NCBI GenBank assembly: GCA_964639785.1
Contig: CAZXEE010000001.1
Span: 455,701-519,700 of the forward strand
Direction: 5' to 3'
DNA length: 64,000 bases
From: an uncultured Gammaproteobacteria bacterium
GTDB taxonomy: Bacteria > Patescibacteriota > Patescibacteriia > Patescibacteriales > UBA12465
In this document: positions 24,759 through 39,360 of the stretch, one piece after another
How the letters are laid out: each line of letters begins with the position of its first letter
How positions within the stretch are numbered: the first letter of the stretch is position 1
The notes under the pieces: generated by a model
What the model was told of the DNA's origin: nothing
The model's database searches: none
What the model saw: only the letters and a program-made list of their open reading frames with translations
Made by a program: the position numbers and the translations under genes

Positions 24759-24881
24759 TTATTTGGAGCGTTTCTTGCTAGCTTTTTCTTCCAACATGAC
24801 TCTTTTAGCCTCTAGCCGCTTGGCGGTCTTGTGTGAGTGTGATTTCTGTCTCTTGCCCACACCGGAAAGTCTTTTTGACAT
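24759..24881 (-). CDS. 40-aa highly basic small protein, unrecognised (below the ORF-track length cutoff)
   Basis: ATG..TAA ORF: MSKRLSGVGKRQKSHSHKTAKRLEAKRVMLEEKASKKRSK (15 K/R). It has its own extended -10 promoter and its own terminator. Confidence 0.55.
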   Translation of the reverse strand: MSKRLSGVGKRQKSHSHKTAKRLEAKRVMLEEKASKKRSK

Positions 24882-25036: not shown

Positions 25037-26065
25037 TTATCTGAAACATAAGGGATCAGGTCCCTTCTCCAAACTGCCATAATGATGCAGTCTTTGTGCC
25101 GGACAGCCGCCTAAGCAAGCTTTTGCCAGATCACATCTTGAGCATTTGCCAGTCAGTTTCTGATAATCAAAATCTCGGAACTTCCGGATAAATTCATGCT
25201 CTTCCCAGAAAAAACGCAGTCCATAGTCCCGGATATTACCGAACTCAAAATGTTTCAATGCCGGGCAGTAGGTGACGCTTCCGTCAGCTCTAACTAAGAT
25301 GCTCTTATGTCCCAAGCTGCAAGCAACGGGTTGGAATGATGGATCGAGCAGATAGCGGCGATCGATGTTGTGGCCCATGGTCCAGCGAAATGGAGCACGA
25401 AGATTTCTCAGGCCGATCAAAGTGGTTTGTGCCTCTTTGAATTCTTCAGGGTTGAGCTCCAAGTCTAAGCTTTTGCTAGCCCTTCCTTGGTTTACTAACC
25501 GCAAGATGTACCACTCATTTACGCCCCAGTGCCTTAACAACGTGAAGATCTTGGTGAGATCTTGGAAATTATTGCGGCACAAGACAGTGTGGATCCCAAC
25601 ATCCAATCCATAAATCTTGGCTAACAAGATACTCCTTTGCAAGGCTCTGAAAGAACCATTGATACCGGTCATGTAATCATGCTTGGAAGCTATTCCTAAT
25701 AAGCTGAATACTATCTGGACCTTATTTCCGCTAGGAGCGTCAGCGGCTAATGTCTTCAAGAGATCATTGCTGATTTCTTTAACCCCTGCGTTGTTAGGAT
25801 AGGATCCGGCAGTATTAATCTCCAGCTTCAATCCCCAGGCTCTTATAAAATGAATAATAGCCGTTATGTCTGGCCGTAATAATGGTTCTCCGCCCGATAG
25901 AATGACTGATTGGCCTCCTAGGTCTTTGAAGTCCAGGACTAAATTTTTAATTTCAGAAAAAGTTAGTTCATTTGGCAGAGCTTTCCCAGACAGAGAGGAA
26001 CAATGAAGGCATTTTTGGTCACAAAGATTCGTGACCTCGATAGTCAATTCCCTGAGGTATTCCAT
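25037..26065 (-). CDS. Radical SAM enzyme with C-terminal SPASM domain
   Basis: CDQKCLHC (CxxxCxxC) at residues 15-22, and GGEPLL. C-terminal pattern C..G...CSRCDLAKACLGGC (Cx2Cx5Cx3C) ...DPLC is a full SPASM cysteine pattern. Confidence 0.9.
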   Translation of the reverse strand: MEYLRELTIEVTNLCDQKCLHCSSLSGKALPNELTFSEIKNLVLDFKDLGGQSVILSGGEPLLRPDITAIIHFIRAWGLKLEINTAGSYPNNAGVKEISNDLLKTLAADAPSGNKVQIVFSLLGIASKHDYMTGINGSFRALQRSILLAKIYGLDVGIHTVLCRNNFQDLTKIFTLLRHWGVNEWYILRLVNQGRASKSLDLELNPEEFKEAQTTLIGLRNLRAPFRWTMGHNIDRRYLLDPSFQPVACSLGHKSILVRADGSVTYCPALKHFEFGNIRDYGLRFFWEEHEFIRKFRDFDYQKLTGKCSRCDLAKACLGGCPAQRLHHYGSLEKGPDPLCFR

Positions 26066-26139
26066 GGTGAATAGTTTTAATGAACGATGGGTTAATTGCC
26101 TTTATATTAAAACAAAGAAGATTATTAGTCAAATTCGGA

Positions 26140-26886
26140 TTAAGCCTCAATTTTTGAGAAAAAATAGCTAGCAATAAGCAAAAAAACGATAGTTACAATT
26201 CCTAGAACGGTAAAGTCGTGCCATAAGCTAAAATGGTTTAAGCCTACCAGTGAACCTCTCAAGGCATCGACGCCATAAGCCAAAGGGTTGATCTTGATGA
26301 TAATCTCAATACCCTTTGGTAATCCTTCTAACGGGAAAAAAGCGCCTGACAGGAAGAAGATAGGCATAATCAGGAAGTTGACGATTAATTGGAAACCTTG
26401 AGCATCCTTCATCATTGAGGCTAGGGCAGTTCCAAAAAGAGTAAACAAGAAAGCAACCAAGAACATGAAGACTATTGCCGGGAGTATCAACCATGGATTG
26501 ATTATCCGGAATCCGATTATAAATGACAAAGCCAGGACGATTAAGCCTTGCAAGACTGCTACAGTAGCGCCACCTAGGCAACGGCCGAACATGATCTGGA
26601 TTCGAGAGACTGGAGCTACCAGCATTTCCTTCAAGAAACCGAATTGCCGGTCCCAGATGATTTCCAAGCCATTAAAGACGGCGGTAAATAGGATGCTCAT
26701 GCAAATCACTCCAGGAATTAAGAATTGAATATAGTTGCCCTCCCCAGCTTTCTGATAGATCGGACCAAAACCAAAACCAAAGGCTAACATAAACAACAAA
26801 GGCTGCCCCAAAGAACCAATAATCCGGGCTTTAGACCTCAGATACCGCTTGATTTGTCTTAACCATAGGATATAAATGATTTCCAT
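26140..26886 (-). CDS. ABC-2 type exporter permease
   Basis: 248 aa with 6 predicted TM segments, immediately (4 nt) downstream of the ATPase. Confidence 0.85.
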   Translation of the reverse strand: MEIIYILWLRQIKRYLRSKARIIGSLGQPLLFMLAFGFGFGPIYQKAGEGNYIQFLIPGVICMSILFTAVFNGLEIIWDRQFGFLKEMLVAPVSRIQIMFGRCLGGATVAVLQGLIVLALSFIIGFRIINPWLILPAIVFMFLVAFLFTLFGTALASMMKDAQGFQLIVNFLIMPIFFLSGAFFPLEGLPKGIEIIIKINPLAYGVDALRGSLVGLNHFSLWHDFTVLGIVTIVFLLIASYFFSKIEA

Positions 26887-26890
26887 ATTT

Positions 26891-27670
26891 TTATCGGTGA
26901 TGATGACGACGCATTTGATCGACTCCGCTGGCTAGTTCTTCCCTAATCTTATTGCCGGTTAATTCGATAAAGGCGTCTTCCAGATTATCTTTGTTAGTCT
27001 TGGCTTTTAACTCTTCTGGGGTTCCTACGGCAATAATCTTCCCGTGATCGATAATAACTACCTTGTCAGCCATCTTTTCGGCCTCTTCGATATAGTGGGT
27101 GGTAAAGAAGACAGTCATTTTCTCTTCCTGATTCATTTTTTTGATATATTCCCAGATATGATTCCTGGTTTGCGGATCAAGCCCTTGAGTTGGTTCATCC
27201 AAGAACAGGATAGCTGGATGATGCATCAAACCTTTAGCAATTTCCAGACGTCGCTTCATGCCACCGGAAAAATTCTTAACCACTTCTTTCTTCCGATCCC
27301 AGAGTTCTACAAATTCTAATAATTGCTGGATCTTCGCTTTTCGTTCTTTCTTCGGGATGCCATAAAGGACGCCATGGATCAGCATGTTTTCGCGGGCAGT
27401 CAATTCATCGTCGACGCTAGAATCCTGAAAGACGATTCCGAAAGAATGGCGCGCTTTGTTCTTTTCTTTGGTTGGATCAAAGCCATTGATGTGGATTTCA
27501 CCGCTGGTCGGATTCAAGACGGTAGTCAGCATCTTGATCGTTGTGGTTTTGCCGGCACCGTTAGGGCCAAGGAAAGCAAAGATCTCGCCGCTATTAACGG
27601 TAAATGAAATATTATCGACGGCTGTAAAATCCTTGAATTTCTTAACTAAATTTTCTACCTTGATAATCAT
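26891..27670 (-). CDS. ABC transporter ATP-binding protein (DrrA/ABC-2 exporter type)
   Basis: Walker A GPNGAGKTT, signature FSGGMKRRL and Walker B ILFLDEPT. Confidence 0.9.
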   Translation of the reverse strand: MIIKVENLVKKFKDFTAVDNISFTVNSGEIFAFLGPNGAGKTTTIKMLTTVLNPTSGEIHINGFDPTKEKNKARHSFGIVFQDSSVDDELTARENMLIHGVLYGIPKKERKAKIQQLLEFVELWDRKKEVVKNFSGGMKRRLEIAKGLMHHPAILFLDEPTQGLDPQTRNHIWEYIKKMNQEEKMTVFFTTHYIEEAEKMADKVVIIDHGKIIAVGTPEELKAKTNKDNLEDAFIELTGNKIREELASGVDQMRRHHHR

Positions 27671-27685
27671 AATGGATTAAGCTGA

Positions 27686-29224
27686 TTAATTAGTCGGGGG
27701 GTTGCTTCCGCTCTGGAAGTTAGTTAATTGGCTGAAGCGGATAGTCGAGACGCCTTCGATATCTTGATAATACCAGTCATTACCGTCCATCGACCAGAGC
27801 AACCTGATGCCGTCATTGCCACCCAGGTCCCAATTAAGAGAGATGTCATAGGGCCGTCCGGATGAATCATCGGTCAAGTTAGCTTCAGAAAAATAATCAG
27901 AAAAAGTCTTAGTCCCGCCATTATTGGTATAATAGTAAATATTGATGTAATGGTTCATTCCGGAAGCCGAAAACCAAAAACCAAATAAACTTGGCTCCCC
28001 TATCTGCCAGACTGATGATGTAGTATCATGAATCGATGTCCCGGAAACTACCTGATAATATCTTTGGCTGGCTTCTACTTCGGCCGTTCCTTGTAATTCT
28101 CCCATTGCCATTCTGACACTCTCTACGTCAGCCATAAAGTCAGTCAATAATCCTTTAGCGGTGTTGGCATATGATTGAGCACTGGCAACGGTTGTAGCGG
28201 CGGCCATATTATCTATCTGCGTCTTGATTGGAGCCTCGGCAGAAATTAAATTGTTAATATCAGTAGCGACTGAGGCCGGCAGATTATATACAAACCCAAG
28301 AGAATAATTTAACGCTTCAACTTTGCTAATTTCAAGCTGGCCGGCCTCTACAGCTATAGAATCAATGTCGCCTAAAGTCACCATTCCATTTATAACATAG
28401 TTTAGTAACTCATTTGTTCTTTGATTCATACTGGTAACCTCTTGGAATGCAGCTTCAACTGTTTGGCAACTTGCTATTACGTTAGAAGCGGTATTGTTTT
28501 GTTTGATAACAACATAGCCATCAGCTTCTGGAGAGGCTGTCCATGACCAATCGATATAATAATCGCTGTTTGATCCGTTATCAACCATATCGATAGAGGA
28601 TGGATCAGACACGTAATATTGTCCGCCAATTTCTTTGTAGGCATAAACTTGGATGGCATGCTGGTTGTTATCCGCGCTATAACTACCGGAACCATAACCT
28701 ATTGTTCCAGCTGCATTGCTAGCCGACGAGAGATAATCAAAAGAAGTTTGGAAGCTCGAAGCATGGCTACTAGCGCTGCAATCAGATTCCAAAACGCCCC
28801 CTGGAGTCAAACACTTCAATCCAGCCGCTAATTGGCCGGTATTGCCGCCCAAACAATAAGAAAGGGTGTAAGAAGCACCATTTTCTGTTTGTTGGTAATA
28901 AAGAGCATTCTGGGTGTTGCTGCAACTACCATCAGCTGGGGTTGGAGCTGAAGGAATAATTTGCATATAAGTCGAAGTTGCTCCCGTAGAAGTGGAAAAT
29001 ATCTGTCCACTACCCCATTCTTCAGCAGTCGGGTATCGACCCTTGTCATTAAAGAATAATTCCAAGGCAGTCTGGACCTGCTTGGCGTCTCCCGCTCTTT
29101 TAGCATCACGGGCCTTAGATCTGGCATTTGATAAAGCTAAAATTGAAACAGTGGCCAAGATGCCAATAATAGCAATAACCACCAGAAGTTCAATGATAGT
29201 AAAGGCTTTTTTAGGCTTAATCAT
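27686..29224 (-). CDS. Large type IV pilin-like protein (prepilin N-terminal methylation motif plus roughly 370-aa C-terminal extension)
   Basis: MIKPKKA/FTIIELLVVIAIIGILA has the class III signal with Glu at +5, followed by the usual pilin helix and ab-loop (ARDAKRAGDAKQVQTALELF). It then continues to 512 aa. Confidence 0.8.
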   Translation of the reverse strand: MIKPKKAFTIIELLVVIAIIGILATVSILALSNARSKARDAKRAGDAKQVQTALELFFNDKGRYPTAEEWGSGQIFSTSTGATSTYMQIIPSAPTPADGSCSNTQNALYYQQTENGASYTLSYCLGGNTGQLAAGLKCLTPGGVLESDCSASSHASSFQTSFDYLSSASNAAGTIGYGSGSYSADNNQHAIQVYAYKEIGGQYYVSDPSSIDMVDNGSNSDYYIDWSWTASPEADGYVVIKQNNTASNVIASCQTVEAAFQEVTSMNQRTNELLNYVINGMVTLGDIDSIAVEAGQLEISKVEALNYSLGFVYNLPASVATDINNLISAEAPIKTQIDNMAAATTVASAQSYANTAKGLLTDFMADVESVRMAMGELQGTAEVEASQRYYQVVSGTSIHDTTSSVWQIGEPSLFGFWFSASGMNHYINIYYYTNNGGTKTFSDYFSEANLTDDSSGRPYDISLNWDLGGNDGIRLLWSMDGNDWYYQDIEGVSTIRFSQLTNFQSGSNPPTN

Positions 29225-29294
29225 ACATAGATTGATTATTTATTTATTATTTTAATTATAGCAATTTATTAAATTATTATTCAAGAGATATATA

Positions 29295-29666
29295 TTAATC
29301 TCGTTTAAAAATTAATTTATGCTTGTCATCTATCAATGTTTCAGCGGTACTTTTTTCGTGGGCTTTGTTTGCTACCGAAGTTATAAAGCTCAAGATTACC
29401 CCGATTCCGGAGAATATATAAAAGACAGTGAATATCTTTCCGGCATCAGTCTGGGGCGACAAATCTCCATATCCGACAGTGGTCAATGAGATCGAACTGA
29501 AATAAAAAGAATCCAGCCAGCGCCAACCCTCTATCTTATGATAGAAGAAAGTTTCGATCAGCAGGATAACGATTACGAAAAATAAAAGGCTGCGGAATTT
29601 GGCGTCTCTCATTCCATGTAGGATTGAACTGAAGAATTTTATGATATTCCTGATTATTATGGTCAT
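29295..29666 (-). CDS. Minimal 2-TM potassium channel (pore-only)
   Basis: 123 aa: TM1, pore helix, selectivity filter TTVGYGD, then TM2. No RCK, voltage-sensor or ligand domain. Confidence 0.85.
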   Translation of the reverse strand: MTIIIRNIIKFFSSILHGMRDAKFRSLLFFVIVILLIETFFYHKIEGWRWLDSFYFSSISLTTVGYGDLSPQTDAGKIFTVFYIFSGIGVILSFITSVANKAHEKSTAETLIDDKHKLIFKRD

Positions 29667-29746
29667 ATTTATGCTTGTTAAGCCAATTTAACGATTAGAT
29701 TATTATACCTCGAAAATCCAAAAAATTCTAGACTGGCTTAAAAATA

Positions 29747-29772
29747 AAAAATAAGCTTTTTGGCTTATTTTT
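29747..29772 (-). terminator. Rho-independent terminator after the 168-aa gene
   Basis: Stem aaaaataagc / gcttattttt with a 6-nt loop. T-rich on the minus strand downstream. Confidence 0.6.
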
Positions 29773-29785
29773 TATTATTTTGAAG

Positions 29786-30292
29786 CTATTTAAATAATCT
29801 TACCAACCATCCGAATAAACTGAATTTACTTTCATTATCCTGAATAAATGATTCCGCCTTGTCTTTAGTGGCCTCTAATTCCTTGATTTGGTTTTCCAAG
29901 TCTGTCTTGATGGTAGTGCTAGCCGTCTTGTCTAAAGCTTTATTTAATCTATCTAAATGGTTTTGGGTGGTTACAAGTTCGCTTCTTAATTGTCCTAGAT
30001 TCTTATAATCCGAACCGATTAAAAAAGACTTAAGCTTTCCTCGATTTTCAACCCTATTCATCTTTTCTTTAACGACTTCGCTGGCATCTTTTTCTTCTTG
30101 AGCCACAGATCTCACCTCATTACGGATCTTATTATCCGAGTCAGCCACCCTTTCAAGCTCTTGTGTTATTTTCATCACTTCATTCCGATGTCGCTCTCCG
30201 TTCATACTCCCTTTTTCTGACTTAGCTGAAACGCTCATGGCAGCTAACGAAATGACAACGATTGTAAAGACGCTTAAAATTTTCTTGTTCAT
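29786..30292 (-). CDS. Secreted coiled-coil protein, function unknown
   Basis: Signal peptide MNKKILSVFTIVVISLAAMSVSA, then a charged heptad-rich sequence. No terminator seen between it and the giant gene upstream. Confidence 0.6.
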   Translation of the reverse strand: MNKKILSVFTIVVISLAAMSVSAKSEKGSMNGERHRNEVMKITQELERVADSDNKIRNEVRSVAQEEKDASEVVKEKMNRVENRGKLKSFLIGSDYKNLGQLRSELVTTQNHLDRLNKALDKTASTTIKTDLENQIKELEATKDKAESFIQDNESKFSLFGWLVRLFK

Positions 30293-30376
30293 AATATTAA
30301 AGTTAATTAATAACTATCAACAACAGTGTAGCATTTTTATAGAATTAAAACAACAAATTGGCTTATATTAAACTTT

Positions 30377-33300
30377 TTACCTTACAATCTTTTCAATTTC
30401 GGCATTAAATTCTAAGAGCGCTTTTTGAACAGCATGGGTCAGCATTAATTCGCTACCGCCTTGCAGCGTGTAATAGCCGCTTCTTTTTTCCCCGGCTGTA
30501 TCAAAAACGGTTTTATCTAAAAATTCATTATCGTAATATTCTAAGTCATTATTATTGAACCTGGTTGTTTCCAGCATTGATGCAGCATTAGTATTATCGC
30601 CCTTAAAGACGCTGCTCTCTTTTCCCTCTTTGCTAATAGTACTGGTTCCCGGTTTTAAATAAAGATTGTTTACCTTAATTAACTTATCGGAAAGATCGAT
30701 GCTGAAGCTCTTGAATAATTCTTCTCTATTTATTTCGGTTGTTTTTATATATTCCTTTAGGCTTAGAGTCGGATCAATGTTTTCTATTATTGATTGGAAG
30801 CGTTTCTGGTTATATTCGCCGCCAAAATCAGACACATCCACCCAGACATTATTGTTATCAAGGTAACCGAACGTTTCTCTGTCTAAGAACGAGCTATTGT
30901 GATTTTTAACTGCCTTATCAACCTTGCTTAGTAATTCCAGCCACAAATTAGCTAGTTGGGCGGTTTTCTCGTCCTTGGATTTAATCATTTCCTGCAGGTT
31001 TTTAGCTTTAGTTTCATCTGATAACATCTCCAAGGCTTTTTCCGAGCCATCTGGGAAGCATTCCCTGAAAGCCTGGATAGCGATAGCGCCATTAAAAGCC
31101 GTCGTTACTGCTCTTTGCAAAGTTTCTTGTTTGTCGATAGATAAAGACCTTAATTCTACTGAATCGGTTGCTTCTTTGAAGAAAGCTATATTATTTGAAT
31201 CACCCCTTGATCGACCACGTAAAGAAACACCCCTTCCTCCATTTACTTTATGTCCGCTTTCTCCGGCTTGTACTCCGCCCCAAGAAGCGGCTATTATTGC
31301 ATTTTGCAAGAAGTTACTTTCCTGGTTAACTGAAATTCCTTTTTCACCGCCGATTGTCAGATGGAAACCGCGAGCTCCTTTTTGATAATTTTCAGACCGG
31401 TTAAAATTAAGATCGATATATTCTATATCATGTAGCAGCTTCATCTCCAAGAGCATGAGATAGGGATTGTCAGTTGGCCTAGTTGCTATTTCATGTACCG
31501 CATCTCTTCCTGAGCCTATTCTGGCTGCATTGCTTAATCTGGCAATATCATCCTTAAGGCTGGATTGAGAGGTTAATTCTTGGTATCCGGAAGCAGTTGA
31601 AGATGTTATTTCATACTCCATTCCGATAGAAGCATGCAAACCTTCAGGGATTTTATCATAGGAATTTTTTTCAACAACCTCCTGATATTTTCTTAGGTTA
31701 TAAGAAACCCTATCGATTACATCCTCGATTTTTCTGTCTGGCAGGTATTCTCTGGCAAAAAGCATGACAACAATGCTTCTGCCCTTATTCTCCTTTTTGT
31801 ATTTTTCTATAAAGTCAGATATTTCTTTAAGATCCTCAGTATATTCAGGTCTCGGATCATCAAGAAAACTTCCGAGCTGTTCAAGGTTGTTCCTATTGCT
31901 AAGCATGGAGCTGATTACATCTATAGAATTTAGAATCTGAGTTCTTACATTGTCTTTTGAAGTAACAGTCATTTCTTTATAGAAGTCCCTTGATTCTTCG
32001 ACGTTGAGAAGGTCGTGGTTTAACAAGGATAGACGAGCCTTCACTTTGTAGTCATTGTCCTCCATCCCGTTCAAGTGTTGTTTGACTTTGTTTATGCTTT
32101 CTTGATCATTAATCCTTTTTAGATAGTCAATAAAATAATCGATGTTGATTTTGTCTTTGAAAACATACTCCGTGATTTTGTCTTTAAAGTCAGAAGAATA
32201 ATTGATATCACCTTCAAATAAGGTTTTAAACATGCTGGAATGATAGTTTTTATCAAAAATCTCTTTTTCAATGAACTCCGGAGCGTAGGCGTAAAAACTT
32301 TCTAAACGTTCCCAGCGCGAAGACTTTCCTTTGCCAGGGTTAGCAAAAGAGCCACTAATTATTCTTTCTATATCTTCTTTCTTTGTTCCGAATTTACTTT
32401 CTTCCAGCGATTTCATAAAAGATATGATGTCCCCAGCCTCTTCCGCAAAACAATCTTCACTAACATTTTTCAAGCCAATGCGGAATAAATTTTCATCTAG
32501 ATAAAAGTCGCCATTTTGGCCGCCCGAAGACAGATAATTTTTCCAGAATCTTGGTGATAAGCCCCTAGTATTCATAGTGGCCGTACTGATTGTCTTTATT
32601 TCTTCGGGGGTTAAAGAGAATCCTTTTTTTATTATTTCATTCTTATCATTCAATTCGTCTGGAGATTTCCTTGAGGCAGCAGCTTCAAGGATCTCAGCAC
32701 CGTTAACCCCTGGCCAATTATTAAGATTTGAGAAGAAAGCATTTCTGATGTCATCATTCCCGAATATTATTCCTTCATTGAATAAGGTGTTAGCTGATGA
32801 AGAATCTAAATCCTTATCATTTAAAAGTTTTAAATAGATTCTCTCGAGTCCGGTTTGATTTTGCCGAATATTATCCAATTGTTTTTCATTTAAAGATTGA
32901 CAAATATAACTAAGATTGTGTCTACCATCAGAACTGCGGCCATTATTTTCTATTGAGTAATTTTTTTCGAAGTAATTTAAAAATTCCTCTCTTTGTTTCT
33001 CATTTAATTCATCAAAATCATGTATGAAATCCGGGTGGTCTAAGGCCCTTAATTCGAGGAGTTTTTGTTCTATTTTATGACGGGTTGCTTCATTACTTAT
33101 CTCGAGGTCTAAGCCGGAAAAATAGGCCCTGCTAATCATGTAATAATGATTGTTTTTATCGCCTGGCAATAATCGTTCAAATAATTTTGTTAAGTATTCC
33201 TCTCGATCATTGATAGGTTTATTATTCTTGTCCATGTTTGGAAAAAAATCACTGATTTTTTTAAAACAAGCCAATGTTAACGATGTAAGATCGTAATCAC

Positions 33301-35407
33301 TTTTCAAACTTAGAGCACCTTCCATTATTTTTCTGGCAAGATGAATCACCTCTTCTTCACTGAGAAAATCTTCTAAATTGCCATTACTAAAAAATATGTC
33401 ATTGGCAATATTTCTTGTTGCCATTTCAGCTTTTGCTGAATTACCATGCTCATCAACTTTGCTTATCAGATTTTCCGACATAGCATCAATCAACTCCTGT
33501 CTTTTGTCCGGAGATTGGTAGTCCTCCAAACTAAGGATTTTTCTAAGAGCTTTGCTGGCGTTTTCTACTGGACCATATTTAACAGTGGCTTCTAAAAGTA
33601 ATTTTGTGTCTTCAGGATTGATAGAATTATTTTGAAGCCCGTATAATATATCATCAACATCAACTTTACAGATAAAATATTTTATATATTTCTTATCTAT
33701 CCGTCCATCAAGCAATAAACTTCTTATCTCTTCAAAGTCTAAGCGGTTTTGTGAAGCGGCATAAGACTTTATTAAATCATCCAGATCATCACTCTGCCTT
33801 GAACCGTCAAGAACTTCATAAAAATAATGTCTTAAGTCGTTTTGATAGGCATTCTTGTGAAAATCAAGCTGCAATTGATGCCATAATAATGGTTCATTTT
33901 TTGCCCAAGCATAAGTTTTCTCATCTTGCTTGTCTAAAATCTTTAAAATTGAATCGGATCTTATATTGCTTAAAGAGAACACTTTTTCTTTTAGACTATC
34001 GGGCCAATTACAACGACTCATGAGTTCATTCAAGGCATGTATCTTTTCGATATCAAAACGATCTGAATCGCGAGATGCGAGAGAATCTAGCATTTGCCCC
34101 ACCATTTCAGAATTGATGCCATAATTTTCATTAGGATATTTATTGATCAAATTACTTATAAATATGAGTTCGTTGCCAGAGCTCATTCTTGAGGTTTCCT
34201 CCAGCATGACTTTAAAATTTTCATCTGAAATCTTCTGACCAGATAACTCATCTTCTTTAATGGATATGATGTGGCTTTTTACTGCGCCATTTTCGGCTGA
34301 CTTTAGAAATGGTCTGAGATCTTTTTTTTCAAGAGGTATAGCATCTAGCAACCAATTCCAGTCTTCACTTAGATAAGAATAGCGTCCCCATTGTTTGTTT
34401 AAAACCTCAAGCATTTCTTTGGTTTCATTTTCCGAACAATTAGATAAACGATTTATCAAAAGAGGAAAAATACCCTTAAAATTATAGTCGGGGCTTCCCT
34501 TCAAGTCATTCAGCCAAAGATTAAAAACAAAATCAACCCTTCGGCTATCGGATAATAATTCATCGGGATTTTTTGAGACAGTATCTAATAAAAGGCTTTT
34601 TATCTCGTTGGGTAATTTTTTGGAATTCGGGAATTGAGAAATTATTGAATCTAATCTGGAAAATATTTTTCCGGAAGAATCTTTTTCAAATTGTTCCTTG
34701 GATAAACGCGACAAAGCCTTCAGAGAGACAAAATCGCTCTCGGATTCTACATATTTTTTTAGTTTTTCTTCTCTTTCTCCAGAATCACTCCAAGTATTTG
34801 GTATGATTTTATTTAAATATTCTTCCAGACCTTTTTTTGCGCTTCCATTTAAATCGTCTTTGCTTAATAATTTAGGCCAAATATTAAGAATCTCCTCGGT
34901 TTTTTCCGGAAAACGTTCGATAATTACTTCCAAGGCTCGATTAGCGTTGGAAATCGCATCGTCGGCCTTTGAGGAGCTTCCCCAAAATTCTGAGCTTAAT
35001 GTCTTTAAAAATCGGTCATAATCCTCGGCCTTAGACAGGTTATTTTTAGCATTAAGCTCGGTGCATATCCTTTTTCCTCTTTTTTCTACATAATTATCCC
35101 GAAGCCTAACTGTTAATTTATTAGAATTGAAGATTTCCACTACCTTTGATGATATTTCTTTTAGCTTTTCTTCGCCCGCTTTCCTTAATTCCAAAATTGA
35201 TTCTCGCAAGCTGGAATTATTGGTCTTGGAAAACTCTTCAACCATTTGATTTTCTAAATCACCCTGAAGATCAAGATCTTTAAGGTAAGAAGAACTTATC
35301 TCCTCTTCTGTCTTATTATTATCTGCATTATCATTAAATTTTTCCTCTTTCGGATCTTCTGGTTTGCCATTCTTTCTTAAGTTTTCGAAATTAAAATTAT
35401 TTTCCAT
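30377..35407 (-). CDS. Giant 1,676-aa protein: helical-repeat N-terminal 1,250 aa plus a putative glutamine-synthetase-like amidoligase core
   Basis: Uninterrupted 5-kb ORF with no signal peptide or TM. Residues about 1256-1450 carry IGMEYE (ExE), AVHEIATRP, RGFHLTIGG and SVELRSLS (ExR) in the order found in carboxylate-amine ligases. Confidence 0.85.
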   Translation of the reverse strand: MENNFNFENLRKNGKPEDPKEEKFNDNADNNKTEEEISSSYLKDLDLQGDLENQMVEEFSKTNNSSLRESILELRKAGEEKLKEISSKVVEIFNSNKLTVRLRDNYVEKRGKRICTELNAKNNLSKAEDYDRFLKTLSSEFWGSSSKADDAISNANRALEVIIERFPEKTEEILNIWPKLLSKDDLNGSAKKGLEEYLNKIIPNTWSDSGEREEKLKKYVESESDFVSLKALSRLSKEQFEKDSSGKIFSRLDSIISQFPNSKKLPNEIKSLLLDTVSKNPDELLSDSRRVDFVFNLWLNDLKGSPDYNFKGIFPLLINRLSNCSENETKEMLEVLNKQWGRYSYLSEDWNWLLDAIPLEKKDLRPFLKSAENGAVKSHIISIKEDELSGQKISDENFKVMLEETSRMSSGNELIFISNLINKYPNENYGINSEMVGQMLDSLASRDSDRFDIEKIHALNELMSRCNWPDSLKEKVFSLSNIRSDSILKILDKQDEKTYAWAKNEPLLWHQLQLDFHKNAYQNDLRHYFYEVLDGSRQSDDLDDLIKSYAASQNRLDFEEIRSLLLDGRIDKKYIKYFICKVDVDDILYGLQNNSINPEDTKLLLEATVKYGPVENASKALRKILSLEDYQSPDKRQELIDAMSENLISKVDEHGNSAKAEMATRNIANDIFFSNGNLEDFLSEEEVIHLARKIMEGALSLKSDYDLTSLTLACFKKISDFFPNMDKNNKPINDREEYLTKLFERLLPGDKNNHYYMISRAYFSGLDLEISNEATRHKIEQKLLELRALDHPDFIHDFDELNEKQREEFLNYFEKNYSIENNGRSSDGRHNLSYICQSLNEKQLDNIRQNQTGLERIYLKLLNDKDLDSSSANTLFNEGIIFGNDDIRNAFFSNLNNWPGVNGAEILEAAASRKSPDELNDKNEIIKKGFSLTPEEIKTISTATMNTRGLSPRFWKNYLSSGGQNGDFYLDENLFRIGLKNVSEDCFAEEAGDIISFMKSLEESKFGTKKEDIERIISGSFANPGKGKSSRWERLESFYAYAPEFIEKEIFDKNYHSSMFKTLFEGDINYSSDFKDKITEYVFKDKINIDYFIDYLKRINDQESINKVKQHLNGMEDNDYKVKARLSLLNHDLLNVEESRDFYKEMTVTSKDNVRTQILNSIDVISSMLSNRNNLEQLGSFLDDPRPEYTEDLKEISDFIEKYKKENKGRSIVVMLFAREYLPDRKIEDVIDRVSYNLRKYQEVVEKNSYDKIPEGLHASIGMEYEITSSTASGYQELTSQSSLKDDIARLSNAARIGSGRDAVHEIATRPTDNPYLMLLEMKLLHDIEYIDLNFNRSENYQKGARGFHLTIGGEKGISVNQESNFLQNAIIAASWGGVQAGESGHKVNGGRGVSLRGRSRGDSNNIAFFKEATDSVELRSLSIDKQETLQRAVTTAFNGAIAIQAFRECFPDGSEKALEMLSDETKAKNLQEMIKSKDEKTAQLANLWLELLSKVDKAVKNHNSSFLDRETFGYLDNNNVWVDVSDFGGEYNQKRFQSIIENIDPTLSLKEYIKTTEINREELFKSFSIDLSDKLIKVNNLYLKPGTSTISKEGKESSVFKGDNTNAASMLETTRFNNNDLEYYDNEFLDKTVFDTAGEKRSGYYTLQGGSELMLTHAVQKALLEFNAEIEKIVR

Positions 35408-35510
35408 ATATTAATAATATAAATAAAATATCAAGATAACATAACATAAAATTTTAATTTTGACAACTTCAAATCAATAACCCATCCCTCTTGTTCTAAC
35501 CGATAAAATA

Positions 35511-35546
35511 CACAAAAAAGAGCTCAGCTAATGCCAAGCTCTTTTT
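35511..35546 (-). terminator. Rho-independent terminator between the HExxH gene and the giant gene
   Basis: Stem aaaagagct / agctctttt (35516-35545) with a 12-nt loop. The minus strand is followed by tttttgtg. Confidence 0.65.
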
Positions 35547-35559
35547 ATTTTTTGATATA

Positions 35560-36498
35560 TTAACCTAGAATCATTTTGGCTATTTCCTCCTTCTCGGCCT
35601 CGTCATCGGTGGAAAAATAAGTTTCAAAGGTTTTTCTCCATTCTTTTTGAAGTACTGCCGGCATTGCAGCTAGGACGCGAAGTGAATTCTTTCCAAAAAC
35701 ATTTTCAATATCTCTGAGATGCATCATATTACCCGTGAATTGTCCGACCTTAAAACGTTTCCAGACATCATCCTTTGTCTCTCCTTTGGCGATAGCTATC
35801 TTTTCGACAATCTTATCAACTAAGTCTAAATTGAATTTATATCTGCTTTTGGAAACCATTTTTTCTTCTCCTTCTTTCTTGTCCTTGTTCATGATATCCA
35901 ACATGGTCTTGTCGGTAACCGCTTCATTAAATCCTGCAAACCAGATATCCTCAGGTTTGTCAGACATTATATGATAGCCTAAGCGATAAGCAGAAACACC
36001 AAGGCTGCCATCTTTTTCTTTTGAAATCCTATGTGAATGATATGATTTGTTATGGATTGATTCATGGGTGAGGATGGGGACTTGCAAATCCTTTAATTCA
36101 TCTCCAGTAATTATCGGTTCAAACTTAGATATTATCTTGTGCATCAACCGGACATATAAAGTTTTGCCATTTTCCCGATTCAGGACAATTCCCGGCTCCA
36201 TAGGATTATGAGATCCGCCCCTGAAATGGAAAGGATTAGTCCTTTTGACTAAGACGATATGGACGTCATCAGGGTTGATTTGATAATCCGGTTCCAATCC
36301 TAAATCTTTCAGTTCCCGATTAACTGAATTCTCTATCTCTTTGATCTCCTGCATTTCGGTCTCGGTCTTTGGCACTTCATTTGGAATCTTTTTCTCTTTC
36401 GCTTCTTTTGATCTCTGATCCAAAATCTCCATAGCGGCTTCTTTGACTTCGGGTTGTTCTGAATTTTTGCCGACAAAATTATATTCGAATCCTTTCAT
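35560..36498 (-). CDS. Putative gluzincin-type zinc metallopeptidase (HExxH ... NEAxTD)
   Basis: 312 aa. HESIH at residues 145-149 and GFNEAVTD at 189-196, 43 residues after the second His. No signal peptide. Confidence 0.6.
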   Translation of the reverse strand: MKGFEYNFVGKNSEQPEVKEAAMEILDQRSKEAKEKKIPNEVPKTETEMQEIKEIENSVNRELKDLGLEPDYQINPDDVHIVLVKRTNPFHFRGGSHNPMEPGIVLNRENGKTLYVRLMHKIISKFEPIITGDELKDLQVPILTHESIHNKSYHSHRISKEKDGSLGVSAYRLGYHIMSDKPEDIWFAGFNEAVTDKTMLDIMNKDKKEGEEKMVSKSRYKFNLDLVDKIVEKIAIAKGETKDDVWKRFKVGQFTGNMMHLRDIENVFGKNSLRVLAAMPAVLQKEWRKTFETYFSTDDEAEKEEIAKMILG

Positions 36499-36597
36499 AT
36501 TTATAGCTTTTATTAGTTTTTAATACGAATTTGCTCTATATTAATAATACCACAAACTTGGACTAAAGTCGAGATAAAATTAGGATTTTCTATAAAA

Positions 36598-36623
36598 AAA
36601 CCACCAGTTTATACTGATGGTTT
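36598..36623 (-). terminator. Hairpin terminator overlapping the stop codon of the 211-aa gene
   Basis: Stem aaaccaccag / ctgatggttt (one mismatch). The minus strand is followed by tttttta. Confidence 0.55.
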
Positions 36624-37244
36624 TGTAAAATTGTTAAACAGATTTTCACCGTTTAACCTCAAGAATTCTCGGATATGCCGACTGCCATAATCATGCATTC
36701 TTAATTTGTCGCCATCCAAGCCAAAGTTTTCTATCTCGTCGAAACTATGGGAATCACAGAATGGTTGATTCTCGTTGATGGAGTTGCGGCAAACATATAA
36801 CCAGACGTCTTCATGGCTCCAGAAATCTATTTTCCGGCTCTTCTTTTGGATATTAATCAACCCGAATAAAGAAAAGTAGGTTGGCATCAAAAATGGATTT
36901 CTAGTTTTTTGGTAAAACAGATATTCATTCCAATTAGCCATGATTCCGCCAAACAATGAATACCTGATTCCAAAAGTTTCATAGGCCTTTTTTGGAAATA
37001 CTTCTAAAGAAAGTTGTTTTGACTTTCTAGCTATAAATTCTTTCTCATCTTTCGAAAATTGTTCCTTTTCGGCCAGCTTCTTTAGATAATGTTTTTTAAG
37101 GCCATGCTTCTGAATCAACTTAAAAAACTTTTTTTCTCTATAGCAAAATTCCTTGAAGCCTCTCATTATCTTGACTAATGGAAATTTAACAACCACTTGA
37201 TCAAATATGAGGACTAGGCGATTGGTTCCCTTTCTTATTTCCAT
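36609..37244 (-). CDS. Hypothetical protein, possibly a minimal protein-kinase-like fold
   Basis: 211 aa. VVVKFP near the N-terminus, and CDSHSFDEIENFGLDGDKLRMHDYGS near the C-terminus, loosely resembling a catalytic loop plus DxG motif. Weak and by eye only. Confidence 0.6.
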   Translation of the reverse strand: MEIRKGTNRLVLIFDQVVVKFPLVKIMRGFKEFCYREKKFFKLIQKHGLKKHYLKKLAEKEQFSKDEKEFIARKSKQLSLEVFPKKAYETFGIRYSLFGGIMANWNEYLFYQKTRNPFLMPTYFSLFGLINIQKKSRKIDFWSHEDVWLYVCRNSINENQPFCDSHSFDEIENFGLDGDKLRMHDYGSRHIREFLRLNGENLFNNFTKPSV

Positions 37245-37284
37245 GGTTTATTGATTTTTGGAGGTTTTATTTTCAATGGACTGT

Positions 37285-37316
37285 CAAACAAAAATAGCAC
37301 TGGATGTGCTATTTTG
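37285..37316 (-). terminator. Rho-independent terminator after the 174-aa membrane-protein gene
   Basis: 10-bp stem aaaatagcac / gtgctatttt with loop tggat (37291-37315). Confidence 0.65.
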
Positions 37317-37351
37317 TCAATTATTTAGATTATTGTAATGGTTTTACCTTG

Positions 37352-37876
37352 TTATTTTGATTCGGCCAGTTTAATTCTGTTTTTTATCAAATCACGGATT
37401 CCTAAAACTGAAACACCCAGAGAATATACTCCACCGACAAAAGTAAGGGCTTCAGCGCCGACGCCAATAGCTTTAGCCCAAAAATCTGATTTAACCAATT
37501 CTGCCAAAGATTTGGTGTCCACACCGCCACGCATCTCTACTAATGCCAAGAAACCCAAAGTTGCAGCCGCTACAGCTCCACCAAGCACTGTATTGCTCAG
37601 CGCGACATCACGATCTAATTTTTCATAAACCGAATTAGTCTTATCCTTTATTTTATTCAATTTATCAGGGCTCATATTCTCCATGGTCGCTTTTAAACCA
37701 GCCACTCCTCCAACTTCCTCCAACGACCTCTTTACCTCCTCCATGTTAGAATTCAATTTTTCATTTTCAATATCAATCTGCTTATCCAAATTCTCAGTTT
37801 CATTAGATTCAAAATTTATTTTAGATGCCAATTCATTGTTGTTTGGCTGATTGAATACTTTTTCATTATTATTCAT
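37352..37876 (-). CDS. Membrane protein with a coiled-coil N-terminal half and two Gly/Ala-zipper TM segments
   Basis: 174 aa. VLGGAVAAATLGFLALV and AIGVGAEALTFVGGVYSLGVSVLG are small-residue-rich TM helices. Confidence 0.65.
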   Translation of the reverse strand: MNNNEKVFNQPNNNELASKINFESNETENLDKQIDIENEKLNSNMEEVKRSLEEVGGVAGLKATMENMSPDKLNKIKDKTNSVYEKLDRDVALSNTVLGGAVAAATLGFLALVEMRGGVDTKSLAELVKSDFWAKAIGVGAEALTFVGGVYSLGVSVLGIRDLIKNRIKLAESK

Positions 37877-37886
37877 ATAGTTAATA

Positions 37887-38051
37887 TTAATTATTTTTAA
37901 TATTATTTAGAGCTTGCTCGGCTTTGACTCCATCTATTAACACTTTAAAAGCCTCGGCAGAAATATTAATAGCTTTTAAAAAGGCCAACTCTTCCTCTTT
38001 GGTTGCTGTTCCTTTTTCTATTTTAGAAATTAATTCTTCGATATTATCCAT
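37887..38051 (-). CDS. 54-aa helical small protein (below the ORF-track cutoff), 10 nt upstream of the 174-aa gene
   Basis: ATG..TAA ORF: MDNIEELISKIEKGTATKEEELAFLKAINISAEAFKVLIDGVKAEQALNNIKNN. Coding status is supported only by its position and the open frame. Confidence 0.45.
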   Translation of the reverse strand: MDNIEELISKIEKGTATKEEELAFLKAINISAEAFKVLIDGVKAEQALNNIKNN

Positions 38052-38131
38052 AGTTTTAAGTTTATTTTATTTTTAGAACACTATATATATTATCATTTTT
38101 AATGATTTTAGTCAATTATTAAAGGCGGGGA

Positions 38132-38393
38132 TCATTCCTTAATTTTCCAAAAATAAAAACCCATTGCTTTTGCAATGGGCTCTTTTTTGGCGATTAAAAA
38201 CATGCCGTTATAAGCTAAAAAGAGTAATGAGGAGCAGATGCTTGCTAAAATATTATTAAGCGAGATGGAAGAATAGAAACAGATTCTGAGAGCAGATATG
38301 CTTAATGACAGATAAACAGGGTGTCCGGATTATGCTATATATCCCGCTAGTTATTATGCCTTTTTCAGCTCGGGGTTCGTAAGAATATAAACA
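38132..38393 (-). pseudogene. Decayed isoprenylcysteine carboxyl methyltransferase (ICMT/PEMT-like) gene: N-terminally truncated and frameshifted
   Basis: Minus strand reads ...EKGIITSGIYSIIR in one frame and HPVYLSLSISAL...FYFWKIKE* in the next. Deleting one A near 38324 restores the family motif TSGIYSIIRHPVYL. No start codon, and about 100 N-terminal residues are missing. Confidence 0.55.
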
Positions 38394-38416
38394 TTAAAAA
38401 TATCAGGAAATTATTA

Positions 38417-38998
38417 CTATTTTGATCTTTCTTTTTTAAAATCTGAATTTAATTTTGAGAAAACTAGAGTATTTCTAAAATCTTTAAAATATTCACTATA
38501 AGAATCTTCTCTTAATTTGCCCTCAAAAATATATCCACATTTTTTAGCAACACCCGAGGATGCTATATTCCTTTCATCACACTTAATTTGAATCCTATTT
38601 AAACCATTCGCAAAAAACTCTTTTTCTATAATTTTTACAGCTTCTGTTGTGTAACCATTTCTAATAAATTTTAAAGACAACCAATAACCAATTTCTGCAG
38701 ATTTTTTATTTTTATCAATATCAAATATACCAATATTGCCAATATATTGATCACCAAGATAAATACCATAATCCACCCTTTTTCCCTCTTTAACTTCTTC
38801 CTCTTTATCAAAAAGATATTTTAGAGAATCTTCAACTTTTTTAGTTGCCTTTTCCCAGGGAAACCATGGTTTTAAATGCTTTCTATTTTCATTAATAGCT
38901 TTAAATATGGTATTTGCTATAGTAATATCGGGTCTAGTTATCTTTAAAACGATCCTTTCCCCAATTAATTTATTTTTTATTTTAATTTTTTTAACCAT
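38417..38998 (-). CDS. GNAT N-acetyltransferase (RimJ/RimL-like)
   Basis: 193 aa. ERIVLKI...NRKHLKPWFPW, IGNIGIFDID...AEIGYWL and GYTTEA...NRIQIKCDERNIASSGVAKKCGY are typical of the Acetyltransf_3 type. Confidence 0.85.
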   Translation of the reverse strand: MVKKIKIKNKLIGERIVLKITRPDITIANTIFKAINENRKHLKPWFPWEKATKKVEDSLKYLFDKEEEVKEGKRVDYGIYLGDQYIGNIGIFDIDKNKKSAEIGYWLSLKFIRNGYTTEAVKIIEKEFFANGLNRIQIKCDERNIASSGVAKKCGYIFEGKLREDSYSEYFKDFRNTLVFSKLNSDFKKERSK

Positions 38999-39170
38999 AT
39001 AAATTATTTTGTAATATCGCCTATTAATTATATAAATATTATATCACAAAATTAATTTAAAAACACAGAAACGGATTCGAACCAATTTGACCCAATAAAA
39101 ACGGCCTATTTGCTAAAATAAGTTATTAATTATTAGAATTTTCGAACCAATATAAATTGGCTTATATTAC

Positions 39171-39200
39171 AACAAAACAGGCCTTTTACGGCCTGCTTGT
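39171..39200 (-). terminator. Possible terminator hairpin downstream of tRNA-Gln
   Basis: The minus strand reads caggcc-gtaaaa-gg(c)cctg followed by ttttgttgt. The stem has a 1-nt bulge. Confidence 0.45.
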
Positions 39201-39209
39201 TCAATGATG

Positions 39210-39280
39210 CTCGGGGATAGGGACTCGAACCCCAATTGACGGGACCAGAACCCGCTGTCCTACCATTAGACGATCCCCGA
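39210..39280 (-). tRNA. tRNA-Gln (anticodon CUG)
   Basis: Hand-folded 71-nt cloverleaf. Acceptor TCGGGGA/TCCCCGA (U1:A72), D stem GTCT/GGAC, anticodon stem GCGGG/CCCGT with loop TTCTGGT, T arm TGGGG-TTCGAGT-CCCTA, discriminator G. CCA is not encoded. Confidence 0.93.
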
Positions 39281-39286
39281 ATATAT

Positions 39287-39313
39287 AGGCTTTTGAGAAT
39301 AACTCAAAAGCCT
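39287..39313. other. Perfect 11-bp hairpin between the mntH-like gene and the tRNA-Gln 5' end
   Basis: aggcttttgag-aataa-ctcaaaagcct, 6 nt upstream of the tRNA 5' end. Lacks a clean U-tract, so it could be a terminator or a processing element. Confidence 0.5.
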
Positions 39314-39360
39314 ATTCCAATATAACTAAAAAATAATTATTTTTCAACCCCCCTATTTCC

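Follow-up and report, generated by a model that had tools for sequence, protein, structure and literature searches.

The window analyzed here is a 64-kb stretch of a Patescibacteria genome, Falkowbacteria-like by its best LysRS and Nramp matches, and our subject is a block of low-G+C DNA at 29230–39208 that adjoins the gene for tRNA-Gln(CUG). The original prediction, made from the letters of the window, described this block as an AT-rich accessory region abutting the tRNA and raised the possibility of a genomic island. Our findings favor, with a probability of about 0.65, a reading of the block as what currently fills a flexible, strain-variable region beside tRNA-Gln(CUG), not as one element. 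The region is a piecemeal mosaic of clade-restricted accessory genes, located at a hot spot of a type already known, and does not form a single functional system. Contigs and loci used for comparison are cited by L numbers; L092 derives from SRR16642447, L086 from SRR32314411, and L003 from JBAYNC01.

Genes and features at the locus

The 3' end of the tRNA, at 39209, faces the block as predicted. From 39.0 to 29.3 kb the minus strand encodes, in this order, a GNAT acetyltransferase, an ICMT/PEMT-like remnant, p54, p174, p211, p312, a giant protein, p168, and a K+ channel. Beyond the channel lie a pilin-like gene and then an ABC-2 transporter pair. The features are as follows (aa, amino acids; GC3, G+C at third codon positions; ORF, open reading frame).

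39209–39280, minus strand: tRNA-Gln(CUG) (ARAGORN; Rfam tRNA, 55.6 bits)
39171–39201, minus strand: intrinsic terminator hairpin of the tRNA (GCAGGCCGUAAAAGGCCUGUUUUGUUG), predicted by folding and near-identical in L003
39141–39151, plus strand: proximal TTCGAACCAAT motif, just inside the limit of L003 homology at about 39138
39066–39088, plus strand: distal motif, reverse complement GGTTCGAATCCGTTTCTGTG, conserved in L086
38417–38998, minus strand: GNAT acetyltransferase (RimL-like), 193 aa (Pfam PF13302, 2.4e-19; NCBIfam); G+C 26%, GC3 0.16
38132–38393, minus strand: frameshifted C-terminal remnant resembling an ICMT/PEMT methyltransferase (six-frame reading); terminator at 38155–38184
37887–38051, minus strand: p54, a 54-aa helical protein; ORF also called in L001 and L092
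37352–37876, minus strand: p174, a 174-aa protein with hydrophobic C-terminal segments; terminator at about 37287–37318
36609–37244, minus strand: p211, a 211-aa protein-kinase-like protein
35560–36498, minus strand: p312, a 312-aa HExxH protein; terminator at 35515–35546
30377–35407, minus strand: giant 1676-aa protein
29786–30292, minus strand: p168, a secreted coiled-coil protein of 168 aa with a signal peptide; terminator at 29743–29776
29295–29666, minus strand: K+ channel of 123 aa with two transmembrane segments (Ion_trans_2; Pfam, 6.3e-23)
27686–29224, minus strand: type IV pilin-like gene, 512 aa (Pfam)
26140–27670, minus strand: ABC ATPase/permease pair (ABC-2; Pfam)

Clear hairpin-plus-U terminators follow only the methyltransferase remnant, p174, p312, and p168, and not most genes as first supposed. 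These terminators define four to five transcription units that match the modules of the block: GNAT with the methyltransferase remnant; p54-p174; p211 with p312; the giant gene with p168, a single unit closed by the p168 terminator; and the K+ channel running into the pilin and ABC genes. As had been claimed, the block is a patchwork and not one operon. Probably p54 is co-transcribed with p174, which by inspection looks like a membrane protein. The former found no family match in Pfam/PHROGs-type library scans, and the latter had none in Pfam, PHROGs, or NCBIfam. The predicted ICMT pseudogene is indeed a frameshifted C-terminal remnant, with its ICMT identity resting on weak Pfam matches (E 0.024 and 0.044).

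Variable DNA beyond the tRNA in relatives

The order g515-GT-GT-Wzy-(SpmSyn)-GreA-LysRS is conserved in at least 30 relatives. In about 17 of them the next feature is tRNA-Gln(CUG), separated from LysRS by Nramp, the ABC pair, or both. Beyond the tRNA, matches to the window are limited to GNAT in L006 (62% identity, 4.2 kb downstream of tRNA-Gln, and likewise AT-rich) and one unrelated gene in L011. Other DNA follows the tRNA in L086, L003, L087, and at least 10 more relatives. Their downstream DNA is mutually dissimilar except for integrase/Rep elements and three small ORFs common to L019 and L033, and it is more AT-rich than the upstream DNA in all eight relatives with downstream sequence. 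The comparison upheld the accessory nature of the block, as gene order is not conserved past the tRNA.

The two closest comparisons place the start of variable DNA at 70–155 nt past the tRNA 3' end. L086 is the closest relative (LysRS 98%, DNA 85% identical); its homology stops at about 39052, beyond which a different ORF, of 127 aa, takes the place of GNAT. In L003 (LysRS 87%, Nramp 88% identical) homology stops at the limit given above, with the tRNA, its terminator, and the proximal box near-identical to the window. The tRNA of the window is identical to that of L086, and its terminator (39171–39208 vs L086:4505–4545) matches L003, L011, and L002 instead, which would fit a small replacement or a recombination breakpoint at the tRNA 3' end in one lineage. 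In L087, the segment past tRNA-Gln (L087:7932–13097) encodes an NgoFVII-like restriction enzyme, a LexA/S24-fused DNA methylase, Vsr, and a caspase-like peptidase C14, a predicted gene set that marks a putative islet of the defence type at this hot spot.

The far side of the block is arranged differently. A gap of 4 nt separates Nramp from the ABC pair (80–81% identical to that of the window) in L087, L088, and L089, and the tRNA comes after the pair; the window, L086, and L003 have the tRNA after Nramp. At least six relatives (L002, L004, L008, L011, L087, and L089) carry the ABC pair between LysRS/Nramp and tRNA-Gln (compared positions: window 26140–27670, L087:5728–7271, L089:11298–12386, L002:2955–4496). 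The pair of the window sits past the block and the pilin gene, across the tRNA at a distance of 11.7 kb, with its orientation unchanged. Such a move of the ABC pair needs more than one inversion. Because Nramp abuts the ABC pair in L087–L089, the extra segment of the window relative to these three is 27671–39360, pilin gene and tRNA included. The left edge originally placed at 29230 is therefore a compositional, not a structural, boundary.

Cassette polymorphism in a sister strain

L092, a contig from another sample that represents a sister strain (98–100% identical), was compared with the window by blastn, with identities taken per 500 nt; 39281–35545 as a whole is 98% identical. Read from the tRNA toward the ABC pair, its agreement with the window is as follows.

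39281–35781: 97–100% identity
35781–35544: 87% identity
35544–29784 (giant gene and p168; 5,761 bp): absent from L092
29783–26290 (K+ channel, pilin, ABC pair): 81–89% identity
26290–21790: 97–100% identity

The ends of the indel coincide with the p312 stop codon and the p168 terminator. In L092, p312 is followed by the terminator that serves p168 in the window. The K+ channel of L092 is cut to 73 aa. This identity pattern is as expected if homologous recombination brought in a divergent allele that either has or lacks the cassette. The position of the 5.76-kb indel inside a divergent tract indicates that the giant gene and p168 take part in cassette replacement by homologous recombination; here as elsewhere, we infer the direction of each event, gain vs loss. 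In the proposed mechanism, homologous recombination between strains swaps whole cassettes, with the flanking genes serving as arms, a process that the indel within its divergent tract shows directly.

Base composition and gene histories

The AT-richness of the block was confirmed. Its G+C content is 34.3%, compared with 40.8% in the rest of the window, and the 10-kb stretch with minimum G+C starts at 29251. Five G+C counts made by hand on 60-nt lines for the original prediction were all exact on recount. As a group, the block genes are below the other 53 genes in G+C (Mann-Whitney p = 1.2e-5) and in GC3 (0.341 vs 0.449, p = 1.2e-4). Codon usage is deviant in GNAT alone (GC3 0.16), so the expected shift in base composition was found and the expected shift in codon usage was not, GNAT excepted. 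Since the codon usage of the remaining block genes is like that of the flanks, composition alone gives little support for a foreign origin.

The low G+C is unevenly spread. The GNAT end (38051–39052) has 27% and the other modules about 35.5%. Coding density is 88% in the block and 91–96% outside it, with 1.2 kb of noncoding DNA in total, scattered as short intergenic pieces. In other genomes the giant gene is 3–7 G+C points under its flanks in three of the four compared. The AT-richness of the giant gene and of GNAT travels with these genes into other genomes. The low G+C of the block is thus partly gene-intrinsic, partly a matter of the very AT-rich GNAT end, and partly the result of a lower coding density.

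The block genes have separate histories. The four contexts examined for giant homologues were all unrelated, with none near a tRNA or other block genes; one adjoins an M3 peptidase that in the window sits 12 kb off. A p312 homologue (64% identity) lies among rpsP, KH, and trmD, an unrelated core context. The genes are also not all orphan-like, as they had first appeared. The giant protein has 18 full-length homologues (45–64% identity), the HExxH protein has 17, and p211 belongs to a large, unnamed family with 490 representative clusters.

These families allowed cautious functional predictions. In p211, residues K20, E107, H166, N173, and D185-Y-G are invariant; its AF2 model (pLDDT 97) gave top Foldseek matches that were all atypical kinases (RIO2, Bud32/PRPK, Ark1, Lpg2603), weak at E 0.03–1, which point to a minimal atypical kinase fold (RIO/Bud32-like). 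In the p312 family, H145 is at least 90% conserved and E146, H149, N191, and E192 are invariant; the HExxH and NE motifs suggest a gluzincin-like zinc metallopeptidase. The C-terminal 530 residues of the giant protein are highly conserved, with motifs GMEYE, HEIAT, and GFHLTIGG. The model of this part (pLDDT 63) best matched glutamine synthetase, YbdK, and Dop at E 0.15–1, a lead, not a demonstration, for a carboxylate-amine ligase domain. Neither the three proteins (giant, p312, and p211) nor two family profiles gained anything from sequence searches of PDB, and Pfam on all 18 giant homologues gave noise only. IMG/VR was also scanned with p211, p312, and the integrase of L003, each taken singly, and added nothing.

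These data bear on whether the block could simply be vertically inherited chromosome, in which fast-evolving, weakly expressed clade-specific genes are intrinsically AT-rich and synteny was lost through the generally high rearrangement rate of such small genomes, not through horizontal transfer. The core-like contexts of the giant and p312 families, identities compatible with vertical inheritance, the low G+C of the giant gene relative to its flanks in other genomes, and codon usage that is deviant only in GNAT all fit this explanation. Against it, LysRS-side synteny, kept in more than 30 genomes, in every case ends precisely at the tRNA, and L086, with a LysRS 98% identical, already differs after 39052. 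The mosaic identity profile of L092 and the integrase-bearing elements at the same point in relatives, described below, also argue against it. We therefore consider vertical descent unlikely.

Two further observations concern the window at large. Its cumulative GC skew rises to about 19 kb, stays on a plateau, and falls steadily from about 29 kb, although almost all genes stay on the minus strand across the window; the AT skew flips sign near 39–43 kb. These changes could reflect a replication-related switch or be the trace of a recent rearrangement beside the block. Separately, a very basic 40-aa ORF (MSKRLSGVGKRQKSHSHKTAKRLEAKR...; 24759–24881, minus strand) lies between a radical-SAM/SPASM gene and a SpoU methylase, with promoter-like and terminator-like signals of its own, and was called as a gene in L001 and L092 too.

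Inovirus-like elements at the tRNA 3' flank

In several relatives, the place where the block begins is occupied by an integrated element. A large serine recombinase of 513–539 aa directly follows the tRNA in L003, L011, and L025. It has Resolvase, Recombinase, and Zn-ribbon domains (1.5e-83 vs phrog_95), and its best-scoring models are CcrA/B/C and XisF, at scores far below the equivalog cut-offs. In these three loci, which hold it whole, the recombinase ORF reads across the terminator in antisense and ends 11 nt into the tRNA; its last ~40 codons are therefore host-encoded. In L090/L091 the C-terminus of the recombinase is found at the contig ends. The elements span the following stretches of the tRNA-Gln 3' flank.

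L003:2870–5730
L011:6650–8561
L025:11926–14608
L090:11376–11594

L003 and L025 also encode a rolling-circle Rep; in general, a small ORF and/or Rep accompanies the recombinase wherever the contig reaches far enough. The IMG/VR proviruses L097 and L098 carry a homologous integrase (Int, 53–56%), the same small ORF, and Rep, with a Zot/pI-like ATPase in L097 only; L097 ends in an antisense tRNA 3' end. A distant recombinase homologue lies beside tRNA-Gln(UUG) in L099. Repeats of the attachment (att) type were not found within L011, L003, L097, or L099, as is expected for serine recombinases. By this gene content the elements are inovirus-like prophages. Inoviruses of the CPR that use serine or tyrosine recombinases and have att sites in tRNAs are already on record (PMC6813254).

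The tRNA 3' side, originally proposed as an integration site by analogy with genomic islands, is thus one in relatives, with serine-integrase elements in L003, L011, L025, and L090/L091. A GTTCGRAA-related box occupies the position of the proximal motif in L002, L011, L086, and L097. The region of this motif is the presumed attB of the serine-integrase elements, unoccupied in the window. Small inovirus-like elements with serine recombinase, Rep, and Zot-like ATPase would integrate at this GTTCGRAA-containing site past the tRNA terminator, a site filled in several relatives and empty in the window.

The spacer and its tRNA-like relics

The spacer between the tRNA terminator and the variable DNA holds two TTCGAACC boxes. 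Two copies of the 11-mer TTCGAACCAAT exist, as reported, at 39076–39086 and 39141–39151, the second one nucleotide from the originally given 39140–39150. An exact 11-nt repeat in this 210-nt AT-rich spacer was reached by 57 of 2000 shuffles and is modestly unusual. Both boxes are kept in L086, and the distal 11-mer matches the T-arm of the relatives' tRNA-Gln (GGTTCGAATCC, reverse complement) at 11 of 11 positions. Read as its reverse complement, GGTTCGAATCCGTTTCTGTG, the distal motif is a degraded version of the T-arm and 3' end of tRNA-Gln. Comparison with relatives marks the 11-mers as inherited relics of a tRNA-derived element. The T-arm-like relic lies 123–133 nt from the tRNA, and the relics are all within 160 nt of it. 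The earlier proposal that the 11-mers are tRNA or att remnants was thus right about a conserved, nonrandom, tRNA-derived origin; scars of a far-end att site they are not.

Four relatives carry a structured counterpart of about 160–175 nt with 57–63% G+C, directly past the tRNA-Gln terminator; the corresponding relics of the window are at 39052–39160.

L019:11660–11825
L006:12040–12212
L008:13138–13315
L033:11607–11784

This structured element begins UUGGGGAUUCGAAC, its start combining a tRNA-Gln-like 5' acceptor sequence with GGATTCGAAC. Its end is an exact 15–17-nt copy of the tRNA-Gln 3' end that fits each genome's own tRNA variant; in L006, L008, L019, and L033 this copy lies 207–223 nt downstream of the first. 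Compensatory changes affect 12 of the 27 predicted pairs across the four loci. The element is present in only 4 of 91 loci. Rfam and ARAGORN gave no match for it, and a covariance model built from it found only its four source loci, not the window. A transfer-messenger RNA (tmRNA) was considered and rejected, as ARAGORN and Rfam find none, the element is too short, and it has no T-loop. One speculative and rather doubtful possibility is that it is an undescribed tRNA-like RNA gene doubling as attB of the inovirus-like elements, whose presence, disruption, and decay drive the turnover of the region. The window spacer with its boxes may be a decayed form of a functional element of this kind.

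Searches for an island in the window

The features above could also be explained by a single old genomic island or prophage remnant at tRNA-Gln that has lost its integrase and far att site by decay. The tRNA whose 3' side the block adjoins has been proven as an integration site in relatives, every block gene is below average in G+C, and both gene decay (the ICMT remnant) and tRNA-like relics are present. We searched the window for what such an element would have left behind. As originally stated, the block has no integrase: none was found by Pfam, PHROGs, NCBIfam, or PADLOC, no ORF has a recombinase domain, and tblastn with the relatives' integrase and Rep matched only the shared tRNA flank. 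No virion, morphogenesis, or replication PHROG matched in the block, and no block protein is similar to genes of the prophage loci L003, L097, and L098. For defence, PADLOC gave only two matches (E ~0.006), both to a coiled-coil protein. Rfam found only tRNA-Gln, at E ≤10 in 28.5–40 kb and at the gathering threshold over the whole window. No tRNA remnants were found after the ABC permease (26065–26140), and a metagenome scan with the window-specific tRNA variant returned three unrelated organisms.

A direct repeat of the tRNA 3' end, which the original prediction had proposed to seek near 29.2–29.8 kb, is not there. No second tRNA 3' end was found as 20–21-mers with up to three mismatches anywhere in the 64-kb window, and the search near the far boundary returned AT-rich chance repeats only. 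A 41-nt repeat at 29238–29278 and 38968–39008 (76% identity) was rejected as an att pair, being low-complexity AT with one copy inside the GNAT coding start.

Several results therefore stand against a single island. The tRNA 3'-end repeat is missing; the relics cluster close to the tRNA and are lacking from the far end; the block genes are not met together elsewhere, with giant and p312 homologues in unrelated contexts; and the internal cassette is polymorphic between sister strains, L092 already lacking one module. An origin of the whole block as one integrated element is accordingly improbable.

Assembly breaks at tRNA-Gln(CUG)

By tally, seven of about 17 public contigs end within 170 nt of tRNA-Gln. 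Ends within 170 nt after it occur in L004, L005, L007, L031, L090, and L091, L086 ends about 750 nt after it, and L092 ends exactly at the tRNA from the opposite side. Strain heterogeneity would give such a pattern, and assemblies seem to break here systematically, with heterogeneity among strains or integrated elements as the suggested cause. Many public contigs ending at tRNA-Gln would also fit a chimeric join in the window, an explanation that we regard as very improbable because exact copies of the giant and Nramp proteins are each recorded in NCBI (longest contig 546,729 bp), a separate 104.8-kb Logan contig carries the block and the pilin-side flank (its fetched part, L001, starts about 226 nt before the GNAT start, covering the spacer and only a few tRNA bases), L092 independently joins the tRNA to the GNAT side, and in L086, again independently, Nramp is linked with the tRNA and the two relic motifs.

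A probable flexible region beside the tRNA

Some observations weigh against a flexible, strain-variable region and temper our confidence in it. Apart from GNAT, the block genes resemble the flanks in codon usage. The far side, with the pilin gene and ABC pair, is rearranged relative to all relatives, and the left boundary is defined indirectly. The comparison turned up no relative with a fully empty site, in which tRNA relics would abut the pilin or ABC genes. The divergent tract of L092 could in principle come from diversifying selection on the pilin and not from an imported allele. Only two very close genomes, L092 and L086, entered the comparison, and L086 ends 600 nt into variable DNA.

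Flexible genomic islands are known from Alteromonas, SAR11, and other marine bacteria, where additive islands lie beside tRNA genes and replacement islands are exchanged via homologous recombination. The locus resembles these islands in holding the same position across relatives with other content in each, in being anchored on one side by conserved core genes and a tRNA, and in showing a cassette indel between near-identical strains with a divergent tract alongside. It is also rich in surface/envelope and giant genes and lower in G+C. Unlike the marine cases, the host is a Patescibacteria genome, of the candidate phyla radiation (CPR), well under 1 Mb, and the far flank is rearranged, with the ABC pair moved across the tRNA. 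Assignment to the replacement or the additive subtype is provisional, given two close strains only.

Other known systems fit in part. Like tRNA-targeting islands, the block abuts a tRNA 3' end, is lower in G+C, is absent from relatives, and shows gene decay; unlike them, it has no integrase, far att repeat, or mobility genes, and its components have separate histories. The inovirus-like prophages of relatives sit where the block begins, whereas the window has none of their genes or remnants and no block protein matches the prophage loci. The recombinases of relatives recall SCCmec in their Ccr-type scores and in the accumulation of unrelated cargo at one fixed site. They differ in that the target is a tRNA flank, not rlmH, and that scores are far below cut-offs; the window itself has no recombinase.

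Herein, our findings describe the locus as a further example of a known region type, in a lineage where such loci are little documented. They indicate that gene turnover still has a dedicated hot spot in very small, host-dependent Patescibacteria genomes, one that combines a phage integration site with cassette exchange between strains by homologous recombination. In this clade, tRNA-Gln(CUG) can be flagged as a break point in the assembly of metagenome-assembled genomes. Low G+C beside a tRNA does not by itself prove a single island: one gene accounts for half of the signal here, and this gene is likewise AT-rich in three of four other genomes where it was compared with its flanks. The giant protein, the minimal kinase, and the HExxH protein are clade-restricted and uncharacterized, and they may bear on the episymbiotic lifestyle.

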